From: Escherichia coli
GTDB taxonomy: Bacteria > Pseudomonadota > Gammaproteobacteria > Enterobacterales > Enterobacteriaceae
Reading direction: 5' to 3' (one strand)
Assembly (NCBI RefSeq): GCF_044647545.1
Contig: NZ_CP172818.1
Length of the DNA: 64,000 bases
This document shows, piece by piece, positions 29,559-55,540 of this stretch (position 1 is the stretch's first letter; every line of letters starts with the position of its first letter). Under the pieces are notes generated by a model. That model was not told the origin of the DNA. It searched no databases and was given only the letters and a program-made list of their open reading frames with translations. Made by a program: the position numbers and the translations under genes.

Positions 29559-30272
29559 TCAGTCCAGCTGTACACCCAAGCGGCGGGCAACGGCTTCATA
29601 GGCTTCGATCAGGCCACCGAGGCTCTGGCGGAAACGGTCTTTGTCCATTTTCTCCAGCGTTTCTTTGTCCCACAGACGGCTGCCGTCCGGGGAGAACTCA
29701 TCGCCCAGAACTACTTCGCCTTTGTACAGACCAAACTCCAGCTTGAAGTCGACCAGAATGAGACCAGCATCATCGAACAGTTTTTTCAGCACGTCGTTCG
29801 CTTTGTAGGTCAGCTCTTTCATACGCGCCAGGTTCTCTTTGCTCACCCAGCCAAAGGTTTCGCAGTAAGATTCGTTGACCATCGGATCGTGCATGGCGTC
29901 GTTTTTCAGGAACAGATCGAACAGTGGCGGGTTCAGCTCAATACCTTCTTCGATTCCAAGACGTTTCACCAGAGAGCCAGCAGCACGGTTACGCACGACA
30001 CACTCAACCGGCACCATATCCAGCTTTTTCACCAGACATTCGGTATCGGAGAGCAGACGCTCCATTTGAGTCGGGATACCCGCTTCAGCCAGTTTGCTCA
30101 TAATGAAGTAGTTGAACTTGTTGTTCACCATACCTTTGCGATCAAACTGCTCAATGCGCGCGCCATCCCCTGCTGACGTATCATTGCGGAATTCGAGCAC
30201 CAACAGGTCCGGGTTTTCCGTGCTGTATACGGTTTTCGCTTTACCACGATACAACTCAGCTTGCTTTTGCAT
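29559..30272 (-). CDS. purC: SAICAR synthetase PurC
   Basis: ATG at 30272 gives 237 aa [18 protein letters not shown]... Confidence 0.93.
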
Positions 30273-30335
30273 CTTTATCACTCCTGGGTGTGAATTAACG
30301 TTTTAAAATCTATTGCTGTCTGGTGTGCCGGATGT

Positions 30336-30425: not shown

Positions 30426-30441
30426 ACGCACACGTTTGCGT
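30426..30441. promoter_or_regulatory. PurR operator (pur box) upstream of purC
   Basis: acgcacacgtttgcgt versus palindromic consensus ACGCAAACGTTTGCGT (15/16). Confidence 0.6.
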
Positions 30442-37464: not shown

Positions 37465-38904
37465 ATGGAAAATCTTGCTCTGACGACGTTATTGCTGCCT
37501 TTTATCGGCGCACTGGTCGTTTCGTTTTCGCCACAACGTCGGGCCGCCGAATGGGGGGTTTTGTTCGCCGCGCTGACCACGCTGTGCATGTTGTCACTGA
37601 TCTCCGCGTTTTATCAGGCCGATAAAGTTGCCGTCACGTTGACGTTGGTCAACGTGGGGGATGTGGCGTTGTTTGGCCTGGTCATTGATCGCGTGAGTAC
37701 GCTGATTCTGTTTGTGGTGGTGTTCCTCGGTTTGCTGGTCACGATCTACTCCACGGGTTATCTGACGGATAAAAATCGCGAACACCTGCATAACGGCACG
37801 AATCGTTATTACGCATTTTTGCTGGTTTTTATCGGCGCGATGGCGGGACTGGTACTCTCCTCGACGCTGCTCGGTCAGTTGTTGTTTTTTGAAATTACGG
37901 GCGGCTGCTCCTGGGCGTTGATCAGTTATTACCAGAGCGATAAAGCGCAGCGTTCAGCACTAAAAGCGTTACTTATCACTCATATCGGTTCGCTGGGGTT
38001 GTATCTTGCCGCCGCCACGCTGTTTTTGCAGACCGGAACGTTTGCGCTTAGCGCGATGAGCGAGTTACACGGCGACGCACGTTATCTGGTTTATGGCGGC
38101 ATCCTGTTTGCCGCGTGGGGGAAATCGGCCCAGCTACCGATGCAAGCGTGGCTACCGGATGCAATGGAAGCGCCAACACCGATCAGCGCCTATCTCCACG
38201 CCGCATCGATGGTGAAAGTGGGCGTTTACATTTTTGCCCGTGCCATTATCGACGGCGGCAATATCCCGCATGTGATTGGCGGCGTTGGCATGGTTATGGC
38301 ACTGGTCACCATTCTTTACGGCTTCCTGATGTATTTGCCACAGCAGGATATGAAGCGGTTGCTGGCCTGGTCGACCATCACTCAACTTGGCTGGATGTTT
38401 TTCGGCTTGTCGCTCTCCATCTTCGGCTCGCGGCTGGCGCTGGAGGGCAGCATCGCCTACATCGTCAACCACGCGTTCGCTAAAAGCCTATTTTTCCTTG
38501 TAGCAGGTGCGCTGAGTTACAGCTGCGGCACGCGCTTGTTGCCGCGTCTGCGTGGCGTATTGCACACCCTGCCGTTGCCAGGCGTGGGTTTCTGCGTAGC
38601 CGCGCTGGCGATTACTGGCGTACCGCCGTTCAACGGCTTCTTCAGTAAATTCCCGCTGTTTGCCGCCGGTTTTTCGTTGTCAGTGGAGTACTGGATCCTG
38701 CTGCCCGCCATGATTCTGCTGATGTTTGAATCGGTCGCCAGTTTCGCCTGGTTTATTCGCTGGTTTGGTCGCGTCGTGCCTGGCAAACCGAGCGAGGCCG
38801 TCGCCGATGCCGCACCGCTGCCAGGATCAATGCGCCTGGTGTTGATTGTACTGATTGTGATGTCGCTGATTTCCAGCGTAATCGCCGCGACCTGGTTGCA
38901 GTAA
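37465..38904 (+). CDS. hyfD: hydrogenase-4 membrane subunit HyfD (antiporter-like)
   Basis: 479-aa polytopic membrane ORF. Confidence 0.93.
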   Translation: MENLALTTLLLPFIGALVVSFSPQRRAAEWGVLFAALTTLCMLSLISAFYQADKVAVTLTLVNVGDVALFGLVIDRVSTLILFVVVFLGLLVTIYSTGYLTDKNREHLHNGTNRYYAFLLVFIGAMAGLVLSSTLLGQLLFFEITGGCSWALISYYQSDKAQRSALKALLITHIGSLGLYLAAATLFLQTGTFALSAMSELHGDARYLVYGGILFAAWGKSAQLPMQAWLPDAMEAPTPISAYLHAASMVKVGVYIFARAIIDGGNIPHVIGGVGMVMALVTILYGFLMYLPQQDMKRLLAWSTITQLGWMFFGLSLSIFGSRLALEGSIAYIVNHAFAKSLFFLVAGALSYSCGTRLLPRLRGVLHTLPLPGVGFCVAALAITGVPPFNGFFSKFPLFAAGFSLSVEYWILLPAMILLMFESVASFAWFIRWFGRVVPGKPSEAVADAAPLPGSMRLVLIVLIVMSLISSVIAATWLQ

Positions 38905-47520: not shown

Positions 47521-48582
47521 TTATTCTTGCGCGATTTGCCCATCGGGCCAGGCGTGAATCACGGCTTTGATCAGCGTCGCCAATGGAATGGCGAAGAATA
47601 CGCCCCAGAATCCCCACAAACCACCGAAGATCACCACCGATAAAATAATCACCAGCGGATGCAGGTTAACCGCTTCGGAGAACAACACCGGCACTAGCAG
47701 GTTGCCGTCCAGCGCCTGAATGATCAGATACACCGCGAAGCAGCTCCAGAATTCCGTGCCAGCACCAAACTGGAATAGCGCCACGCCAATCACCGGAATG
47801 GTCACCACAAATGCGCCAATGTACGGAATAAGAACCGAGAAGCCGACCAGCACCGCCAGCAGCAGCGAATAGTTCAGCCCGAAGAGTAAGAACCCCAGCC
47901 AGGTGGCGATCCCCACCACGATCATCTCCAGCACTTTGCCGCGGATATAGTTGGTGATTTGTTGATTCATCTCCTTCCACACCTGTCCTGCCAGTCCGCG
48001 GTTACGCGGTAGCACCCGACGAACGGCGTTCAGCATCTGCTCTTTGTCTTTCAGCAGGAAGAAGACCATCAATGGCACCAGCACCAGATAGACAGCTATG
48101 GTGAGCAAACCGACCAGCGAGGCGAGGGAAATTTTCACCACCGAATCGCCCATGGTCAGCATCCGACTGCGCATATTTTCGGCCATTGCATCAATAATGC
48201 CCGCGTCCATTAACGCCGGATAGCGGCGCGGCAACGTGGCGGCAAAGTCAGAAAGCTTATTGAGCATCCCCGGCATATCGCGAATTAAGTAGATGCCCTG
48301 CTGCCAGGCGATAGGCAATACCACGAACGCCATCAGTAGCAATATACCGACGAAAACCACCAATACAATCGACGTCGCCCAGCGGCGGGAGCAGCCAATA
48401 GATTGCAGGCGCACGGTTGGCCATTCCAGCAAATAGGCCAGCACAATAGCCACCAGCAACGGAGCAAGCAGGCCACTAAAGAAAAAGATAATGCCAAATC
48501 CGGCAACTAAAATAACCAGCAAGGCAATCGCTTCCGGGTCGCTAAAACGGCGGCGATACCATTGCATCAACATTTCGAGCAT
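47521..48582 (-). CDS. perM: AI-2E family permease PerM (formerly yfgO)
   Basis: 353-aa polytopic membrane ORF. Confidence 0.9.
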   Translation of the reverse strand: MLEMLMQWYRRRFSDPEAIALLVILVAGFGIIFFFSGLLAPLLVAIVLAYLLEWPTVRLQSIGCSRRWATSIVLVVFVGILLLMAFVVLPIAWQQGIYLIRDMPGMLNKLSDFAATLPRRYPALMDAGIIDAMAENMRSRMLTMGDSVVKISLASLVGLLTIAVYLVLVPLMVFFLLKDKEQMLNAVRRVLPRNRGLAGQVWKEMNQQITNYIRGKVLEMIVVGIATWLGFLLFGLNYSLLLAVLVGFSVLIPYIGAFVVTIPVIGVALFQFGAGTEFWSCFAVYLIIQALDGNLLVPVLFSEAVNLHPLVIILSVVIFGGLWGFWGVFFAIPLATLIKAVIHAWPDGQIAQE

Positions 48583-51539: not shown

Positions 51540-52829
51540 TTATTTGTCTGTTATATCCGCGTCTTCTGCGTCCAGCACCACTTCTTCAGGGCGCAGCATA
51601 CTAATCAGTTTGAAGATCAAACTTAAGCCGATACCGACGATGGTCGCCAGCGCCATACCTTTCAGCTCCGCCGCGCCAATGTTTACCTTCGCGCCACTGA
51701 CGCCGATGATCAAAATAACGGAAGTCAGGATCAGGTTCTGTGCTTTGTTGTAATCCACTTTCGATTCGATCAACACACGAATACCGGAAGCACCGATGAC
51801 ACCGTAAAGCAGCAGCGAAACGCCGCCCATCACCGGCAATGGAATCATCTGGATAGCAGCAGCCAGTTTACCGACGCAGGAAAGCAGGATAGCGAAAATC
51901 GCCGCCCCGCCGATAACCCAGGTACTGTAAACACGGGTGATCGCCATCACGCCAATGTTTTCTCCGTAAGTGGTGTTTGGCGTGGAGCCAAAGAAGCCGG
52001 AGATCACGGTCGACAAGCCGTTAGCAAACATCGAACGGTGCAGACCTGGATCGCGCAGCAGATCTTTTTTGACGATATTAGCCGTTACCACCAGGTGCCC
52101 TACGTGTTCGGCAATAACCACTAACGCCGCTGGCAGAATAGTCAGAATGGCAAACCACTCGAAGCGCGGCGTATAGAGGGTCGGCAGCGCAAACCAGTGA
52201 GCATTAATAATCGGCGTGGTATCGACAATTCCCATTGCGAAAGAGAGCGCGTAGCCCACCAGCACGCCAATTAAAATCGGGATAATTGCCAGGAAACCAC
52301 GAAACAGCACGGAACCTAAAACCGTGACTGCCAAGGTGGTAATGGAGATGATGATGGTTTTGGAGTCTGGCGTTTGCCCTTCAGCCGGGAGTAAACCTGC
52401 CATACCGGCAGCTACGCCCGCCAGCTCCAGACCGATGACGGCAACGATTGCGCCCATTGCCGCAGGTGGAAACAGCACGTCCAGCCAGCCGGTCCCCGCT
52501 TTCTTCACGATAAAAGAAACCAGGCAGAACAGCACGCCGCACATAATAAAGCCGCCCAGCGCGACTTCATACCCTAACGGCAACAGTAACAATACCGGTG
52601 AAATAAAGGCAAAGCTGGAACCAAGATAAGCCGGGATTTTCCCTTTACAGATGAAGAGATACAGCAGCGTTCCTATACCGTTAAATAACAGTACAGTCGC
52701 CGGGTTAATATGAAATAAGACGGGCACCAGGACGGTTGCACCAAACATGGCGAACAAATGTTGCAAACTAAGCGGGATTGTCTGTAAAAGTGGCGGTCTT
52801 TCACTCACCCCGATAGCACGGCGCGTCAT
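51540..52829 (-). CDS. uraA: uracil:H+ symporter UraA
   Basis: ATG at 52829 gives 429 aa [16 protein letters not shown]...; NCS2 family. Confidence 0.92.
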
Positions 52830-52914: not shown

Positions 52915-53541
52915 TTATTTCGTACCAAAGATTTTGTCACCGGCATCGCCGAGGCCCGGAATAATGTATCCGTGCTCGTTCAGTCCCTGGTCAATCGATG
53001 CGGTATACAGTTCGACGTCCGGGTGCGCTTTTTCCAGCGCAGCGATACCTTCTGGCGCAGCTACCAGTACCAGAACTTTGATGCTGCTGCAGCCCGCTTT
53101 TTTCAGCAGGTCGATGGTCGCGATAACGGAACCACCGGTTGCCAGCATTGGGTCAACGATCAGCGCCATACGCTCATCGATGTTAGAAACCAGTTTCTGG
53201 AAGTACGGTACCGGCTCCAGCGTTTCTTCATTACGGTACATACCGACGACGCTGATACGCGCGCTCGGAACGTTTTCCAGCACACCGTCCATCATCCCCA
53301 GACCGGCACGTAGAATTGGCACAACGGTAATTTTCTTACCTTTGATCTGATCGATTTCTACCGGGCCGTTCCAGCCTTCGATAGTTACTTTTTCCGTTTC
53401 GAGGTCGGCGGTCGCTTCGTAAGTCAGCAGGCTACCCACTTCGGAAGCGAGTTCGCGAAAGCGCTTGGTGCTGATATCTTGCTCACGCATCAGTCCCAGC
53501 TTGTGTTTGACGAGTGGGTGTTTGACTTCCACGATCTTCAT
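52915..53541 (-). CDS. upp: uracil phosphoribosyltransferase Upp
   Basis: ATG at 53541 gives 208 aa [20 protein letters not shown]... Confidence 0.95.
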
Positions 53542-53566
53542 ACTCTTTCTCCTTTGAGGGGCAGCC

Positions 53567-53612
53567 ACAAAAAAATCGACGGATTATACCTCCTTTCTTC
53601 AAGGCGGCAATA
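53567..53612 (-). promoter_or_regulatory. upp promoter with T-tract initially transcribed region
   Basis: Minus strand: TTGCCG -N16- TATAAT ccgtc GATTTTTTTGTGGCTGCC; perfect -10, T7 run right after the likely start site. Confidence 0.6.
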
Positions 53613-53785
53613 TTATTTTCGTTGACTTTAGTCAAAATGATAACGGTTTGAGATAAAGTTATTTTGTATTCAAATGGTTATGGAAGAAGATTATTCCATC
53701 CGAAAACGATCCTTTGCCCTGGTACAAGTATTCTTTTGCCGCGCGCCTGGGGAAAAGACGTGCAAAAAGGTTGTGTAAAGCAGTC

Positions 53786-53801
53786 TCGCAAACGTTTGCT
53801 T
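53786..53801. promoter_or_regulatory. PurR operator (pur box) upstream of purMN
   Basis: tcgcaaacgtttgctt, core GCAAACGTTTGC perfect; about 65 bp upstream of purM start. Confidence 0.65.
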
Positions 53802-53846
53802 TCCCTGTTAGAATTGCGCCGAATTTTATTTTTCTACCGCAAGTAA

Positions 53847-54901
<1,055 letters not shown>

Positions 54902-54902
<1 letters not shown>

Positions 54903-55540
54903 TGAATATTGTGGTGCTTATTTCCGGCAGCGGAAGTAATTTGCAGGCAATTATTGACGCCTGCAAAACCAACAAAATTAAAGGCACCGTACGGGCAGTT
55001 TTCAGCAATAAGGCCGACGCGTTCGGCCTTGAACGCGCCCGCCAGGCGGGTATTGCAACGCATACGCTCATCGCCAGCGCGTTTGACAGTCGTGAAGCCT
55101 ATGACCGGGAGTTGATTCATGAAATCGACATGTACGCACCCGATGTGGTCGTGCTGGCTGGTTTTATGCGCATTCTCAGCCCGGCGTTTGTCTCCCATTA
55201 TGCCGGGCGTTTGCTGAACATTCACCCTTCTCTGCTGCCGAAATATCCCGGATTACACACCCATCGTCAGGCGCTGGAAAATGGCGATGAGGAGCACGGT
55301 ACATCGGTGCATTTCGTCACCGATGAACTGGACGGTGGCCCGGTTATTTTACAGGCGAAAGTCCCGGTATTTGCTGGTGATACGGAAGATGACATCACCG
55401 CCCGCGTGCAAACCCAGGAACACGCTATTTATCCACTGGTGATTAGCTGGTTTGCCGATGGTCGTCTGAAAATGCACGAAAACGCCGCGTGGCTGGATGG
55501 TCAACGTCTGCCGCCGCAGGGCTACGCTGCCGACGAGTAA
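54902..55540 (+). CDS. purN: GAR transformylase PurN
   Basis: 212-aa ORF; start overlaps purM stop (TAATG). Confidence 0.95.

Follow-up and report, generated by a model that had tools for sequence, protein, structure and literature searches.

The 16-bp sequence TCGCAAACGTTTGCTT at positions 53786–53801 (also written tcgcaaacgtttgctt) is almost certainly the PUR-box operator of the purMN operon. It was read directly from the window, by which we mean the whole 64-kb stretch of the E. coli chromosome that was analysed. The purMN PurR operator is already known in the literature and nothing in the feature is new; the identification rests on the published K-12 site, on the location of the box in a short intergenic spacer and on its conservation across species.

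Sequence and genomic context of the PUR box

The core of the box (53788–53799) is a perfect 12-bp palindrome, GCAAACGTTTGC, with the central CpG at 53793–53794. The 323-bp upp–purM spacer contains the box, and 63 nt separate its end from the GTG start codon of purM, corresponding to 64 bp from the last base of the box to the first base of the GTG. A sequence-only reading of this DNA had placed a PurR operator here, upstream of purMN, and had described a perfect core about 65 bp upstream of purM. The operator is borne out by the exact 16-mer, the published ChIP-chip motif and conservation; the core was correctly recognized, and the distance was a fair estimate. The further statement that the site lies in a region shared with the divergent upp promoter holds in so far as the two occupy one intergenic spacer, but they do not overlap, the upp promoter being situated about 175 bp away.

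Gene coordinates (Table 1) were taken from the RefSeq annotation of a 100%-identical genome together with the list of open reading frames (ORFs). A 701-bp query around the box was 100% identical to several complete genomes, including that of strain ST648, and was matched in 5,425 of 5,426 E. coli genomes. In the second gene of the operon, residue 10 of PurN (54929–54931) is Ser (GSGSN), whereas Asn (GNGSN) occupies this position in 13 of the 14 relatives compared; Ser-10 is also found in one Enterobacter species (L013), and the RefSeq accession of the variant protein is WP_022645973.1.

Table 1. Coordinates of the purMN operator, its promoter, the neighbouring genes and the purC operator in the 64-kb window.
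Feature	Position	Strand	Basis
PUR box, 16-bp PurR operator TCGCAAACGTTTGCTT	53786..53801	.	sequence, published identical 16-mer, matrix score, conservation
-35 hexamer TCGCAA of purMN, weak (3/6 to TTGACA), 17-bp spacer, wholly in left operator half	53786..53791	+	inferred from -10 position
Extended -10 element TGtTAGAAT of purMN	53806..53814	+	starts 4 nt past operator; fixed offset, at least 95% conserved columns
purMN transcription start	53821..53822	+	inferred: 7–8 nt after -10 hexamer
purM (AIR synthetase), GTG start, first regulated gene	53865..54902	+	ORF, RefSeq annotation of identical genome
purN (GAR transformylase), second operon gene; start overlaps purM stop	54902..55540	+	ORF, annotation
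ppk	after purN	+	RefSeq annotation, ORF list
upp promoter	-35 53610-53605, -10 53588-53583	-	promoter scan
upp	52915-53541 (start 53541)	-	RefSeq annotation, ORF list
uraA	51540-52829	-	RefSeq annotation, ORF list
purC PurR operator ACGCAAACGTGTGCGT	30426-30441	-	top matrix match (18.3 bits), published purC ChIP-chip motif (PMC3159470)

Identity with the K-12 operator

Exactly TCGCAAACGTTTGCTT is listed in Table 1 of Cho et al. 2011 (PMC3159470) under the purM-purN PurR ChIP-chip peak, at K-12 positions 2,619,140–2,619,155, and the same sequence is named as a PurR site by Liu et al. 2011 (PMC3266220), where the K-12 purM start is given as 2,619,219. Taken together, the coordinates of the two papers yield a motif-to-purM offset of 64 bp in K-12, equal to the offset in the window. 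The K-12 peak has a log2 value of 2.08 with adenine and 0.98 without it, and the paper counts purMN as one of the IMP-pathway units under repression by PurR-hypoxanthine (PMC3159470). Removing the PurR site from a multicopy clone of the upp-purM spacer weakens the protective effect of the clone, an effect that the authors attribute to PurR titration (PMC3266220). The purMN site ranks among the strongest targets of PurR in E. coli.

All of these experimental data come from K-12, on DNA identical to that of the present strain: the window equals K-12 MG1655 from about 53727 through to the purM start. The K-12 purMN operator thus shares the 16-mer, the 64 bp to the GTG and the flanking promoter with the one described here, and this strain differs only further upstream in the spacer, by several SNPs and by one T fewer in the upp T-tract. 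The primary paper on PurR binding in vitro, cited in these studies, is He et al. 1990, and Meng et al. 1990 is reportedly also associated with the K-12 purMN PurR operator.

The nnAAnCGnTTnn core of the palindrome is common to LacI-family operators, among the relatives of PurR whose structure is solved RbsR is the closest (E 4.6e-95), and at purR itself GalR operators overlap PurR operators; these points would fit a palindrome that serves mainly another regulator of the LacI/GalR family (RbsR, GalR/GalS or CytR), with PurR as a secondary ligand. We regard such an assignment as very unlikely. The half-sites CGCAAAC represent the PurR-specific form, whereas GalR sites end in GTG...CAC, and in the window the box tracks promoters of purine biosynthesis (purC and purM). 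The PurR ChIP-chip signal at this site is maximal and adenine-responsive (PMC3159470), and GalR cross-binding as the main function was rejected because purMN has no entry in the GalR ChIP-chip table.

Motif score and comparison with other PurR operators

The exact 12-mer GCAAACGTTTGC occurs once in the 64-kb window, against 0.0038 occurrences expected per 64 kb from base composition. The matrix scan that the sequence-only reading had proposed as a check was carried out with a weight matrix trained on 25 ChIP-chip PurR motifs of PMC3159470, from which the three sites located in the window (purMN, purC and yfgO/yfgC) were left out. With the motif oriented as published the purM site scored 16.7 bits, and a symmetric matrix gave it 18.2 bits, the training sites (n = 25) spanning 11.6–24.9 bits, and it ranked among the three best matches over the 128,000 positions scanned. 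The best match was the known purC operator, which is also the sole intergenic match in the 64 kb to exceed the purM site. Under a zero-order model, 0.14 matches per window are expected at the purM score, or 0.05 with the symmetric matrix; when a first-order Markov null was applied, 63 of 200 simulated windows reached 16.7 bits, and the matrix score by itself is not significant over the whole 64 kb. The case therefore rests on location and conservation; with the search restricted to the 323-bp spacer, the expectation falls to 0.0002–0.0007.

Compared with the consensus ACGNAAACGTTTGCNT, the purM box matches 13 of the 14 specified positions, the exception being position 1 (T for A); its departures from the consensus are situated in the flanks, at positions 1 and 15. 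Four properties expected of a PUR box were found at this locus: a dyad-symmetric 16-bp sequence with a central CpG that matches ACGNAAACGTTTGCNT, a position at, or overlapping with, the promoter of a transcription unit for purine or nucleotide metabolism (purM-purN, with an inferred transcription start), a discrete conserved footprint in species that use PurR, and a cognate purR in the organism. The last of these lies outside the window and is seen through E. coli genomes, as K-12 purR DNA matches 5,424 of 5,426 complete genomes of the species, several of which are 100% identical to the window over the stretch tested.

The purC operator shares its regulator and motif with the purM box. It lies directly after the bamC stop codon, between bamC and purC, about 145–155 nt upstream of the purC start, a distance that depends on the start codon called in the ORF list (purC taken as 29559–30281). 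It has one mismatch in the palindromic core, and its flanks are nearer the consensus than those of the purM box, with A at position 1 and G at position 15. The purF operator present in the PurR-hypoxanthine-DNA crystals (1PNR, 1WET and related entries) is likewise a 16-bp pseudo-palindrome with a central CpG, bound by a PurR dimer; its sequence is AAGAAAACGTTTGCGT (PMC3159470). The left half of the purF site is imperfect, whereas the purM site has a perfect 12-bp core and weaker outer positions. Several wild-type and mutant PurR entries, 1PNR and 1WET among them, are available in the PDB. Details of the PurR-DNA structure, the structural basis for the mechanism assumed below, are reportedly given by Schumacher et al. 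1994. The operators of purB and purR, which act as roadblocks in the coding region or leader, employ the same protein and motif, but they block elongation downstream of the promoter, whereas the purM site, by its overlap with the core promoter, should prevent initiation.

Conservation across species and within E. coli

A single PurM scan over species-representative genomes gave 80 gammaproteobacterial loci, and a box was called where the symmetric matrix yielded 14 bits or more in the 300 nt preceding purM. A box was detected upstream of purM in 64 of the 80 species, compared with 5 of 80 coding-region controls. It was present in all sampled Enterobacterales except two representatives of the Orbaceae (Gilliamella and an unclassified member of the family), in most Pasteurellaceae, in the Vibrionaceae and in one Aeromonas species out of two. 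Scores under the 14-bit cut-off were obtained for the other Aeromonas and for the Pasteurellaceae Cricetibacter and Spirabiliibacterium (1.4 bits), and the purM upstream regions of Alteromonas, Shewanella, Rheinheimera, Pseudoalteromonas and similar genera had no box in the same 80-locus scan.

When 32 Enterobacterales were aligned, the box averaged 96% identity to the window, the 91 nt upstream of it 25% and the stretch from the box to the start codon 68%. Within the species, 5,316 of 5,424 E. coli genomes show at least 99% identity over the 60 nt that include the box and the promoter (53778–53837); over the neighbouring 60 nt (53718–53777) just 105 genomes reach this level, and about 1,300 have no megablast match. 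In view of this conservation, the purM site is no chance match.

Architecture of the purMN promoter

In 47 sequences, comprising the window and 46 of the 80 loci, a TGnTAGAAT-type element follows the box by 4 nt. The n of this motif varies among T, A, C and G while the TG is constant, which in these alignments is the signature expected of an extended -10 promoter. The purM promoter was not called by a generic promoter scan, which did find the upp promoter; the -35 sequence matches the consensus at 3 of 6 positions and the scanner needs 4 of 6, which accounts for the miss, and the promoter was therefore inferred from the conserved TGnTAGAAT. On this geometry, the operator would be centred at about -28 and would extend from about -36 to -21 of the purMN promoter. 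Published descriptions agree with both points: the PurR site is stated to be 28 nucleotides upstream of purM (PMC3266220), and PurR sites in general are described as lying between the -35 and -10 elements (PMC3159470).

In Vibrionaceae (L045, L050, L057, L064-L068, L070, L074-L076) the purM box is kept and stands upstream of the TGnTAGA -10 motif at a distance about 11–14 bp greater than in Enterobacterales, which brings its right half (TTGCTA) to the -35 position. Judging from the aligned promoters, the predicted core promoter is overlapped by the box in both the Enterobacterales and the Vibrionaceae arrangements.

This overlap with the inferred -35 hexamer, together with the fixed distance to a conserved extended -10 element, could be taken to mean that only RNA polymerase elements (the -35 region and the spacer) are conserved and that the palindrome is incidental. 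We judge this even less probable than recognition by another LacI/GalR-family regulator. TCGCAA at the -35 position is invariant despite its poor match to TTGACA (3/6), and at least 14 contiguous dyad-symmetric bases are conserved, including spacer positions that sigma-70 does not read. In addition, Vibrionaceae retain the palindrome though it is shifted relative to the -10 element, and ChIP places PurR on the box (PMC3159470).

A role for the palindrome as an RNA or DNA hairpin (a terminator, an attenuator or a riboswitch-like leader) rather than as a protein site has a negligible probability, since a 12-bp palindrome can fold in principle but the predicted RNA hairpin (-6.1 kcal/mol) is weak (z = -1.75, with 13 of 200 shuffles folding equally well), and the box precedes the inferred start of purM transcription and is therefore outside the purMN mRNA. 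RNA explanations were rejected on account of this weak hairpin, the lack of terminator-like sites in 53500–53900 and the lack of any Rfam match even at E <= 1. No evidence contradicting the purMN operator reading was met in this analysis.

Proposed mechanism of repression

PurR is a repressor of the LacI/GalR family and is encoded elsewhere on the chromosome. When hypoxanthine or guanine builds up, these purines would bind the PurR dimer as corepressors, and the corepressor-bound dimer would then occupy the palindrome at 53786–53801. Each helix-turn-helix is expected to read one CGCAAAC half-site, while the hinge helices would widen the minor groove where the central CpG lies and introduce a bend into the DNA. 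In the extended -10 promoter, both the weak -35 hexamer and the greater part of the spacer appear to be covered by the operator, so bound PurR would keep RNA polymerase off the promoter, and both purM and purN would be repressed. That occlusion is the blocked step is what we infer from the promoter geometry and established knowledge of PurR. Adenine-enhanced occupancy by PurR in vivo and repression of purMN may be expected in this strain by analogy with K-12, whose literature describes them on identical DNA (PMC3159470).

The upp side of the spacer and other PUR-like boxes

The initially transcribed T-tract of upp (53570–53576) has 7 T in this strain, compared with 8 in K-12 MG1655 and E. albertii; the 7-T variant is common to the 100%-identical genomes and is therefore no sequencing error in the window. 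The upp T-tract is a target of UTP-dependent reiterative transcription. A published FNR box, TTGACTTTAGTCAA, is located in the upp-purM spacer at 53622–53635, 165 bp from the centre of the PUR box. In at least 15 other Enterobacterales (loci L008, L010, L012, L014, L015, L021, L025, L027, L031, L035, L037, L039, L040 and others) an FNR-type palindrome, TTGATCnnGATCAA, is found at a nearly fixed distance of 68–71 bp from the PUR box. From the sequence comparison, the interval separating the FNR and PUR sites appears to be about 95 bp longer in E. coli and E. albertii.

The coding region of uraA contains a strong PUR-like box, ACGGCAACGATTGCGC, at 52438–52453, which differs by a single base from the published yieG/purP site. 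Oriented as published, it scores 17.6 bits, more than the purM site; the symmetric matrix gives it 14.4 bits. The published purMN ChIP-chip peak stops about 1 kb short of this box, and upp is not mentioned at all in that study (PMC3159470). By analogy with purB, PurR might also control the divergent upp-uraA unit through this putative box, as a roadblock to elongation, a proposal that we consider improbable; if it were true, both arms of the divergent locus would be PurR targets. The purM box is an unlikely route to upp-uraA control because some 175 bp separate it from the upp promoter; to our knowledge, PurR dimers do not loop DNA.

Two weaker matches were noted elsewhere in the window. The sequence CCGGAAGCGATTGCCT at 48522–48537 on the minus strand (13.7 bits) is identical to the motif under the weak yfgO/yfgC PurR ChIP-chip peak (PMC3159470). 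The sequence ACCGGAACGTTTGCGC at 38032–38047 (13.8 bits) lies inside a 479-aa ORF (37465–38904, plus strand), and about one match of its kind is expected by chance per window.

Implications

The purMN operator is a standard example of promoter-occlusion repression in the purine regulon. It changes no open question, and its value here is that a textbook operator was correctly read from raw sequence with exact coordinates. A small refinement concerns the promoter, in that purMN would be served by a promoter of the extended -10 type, with the operator occupying its weak -35 position. Enterobacterales and Pasteurellaceae appear to share one fixed geometry between the box and the -10 element, which is shifted in Vibrionaceae.
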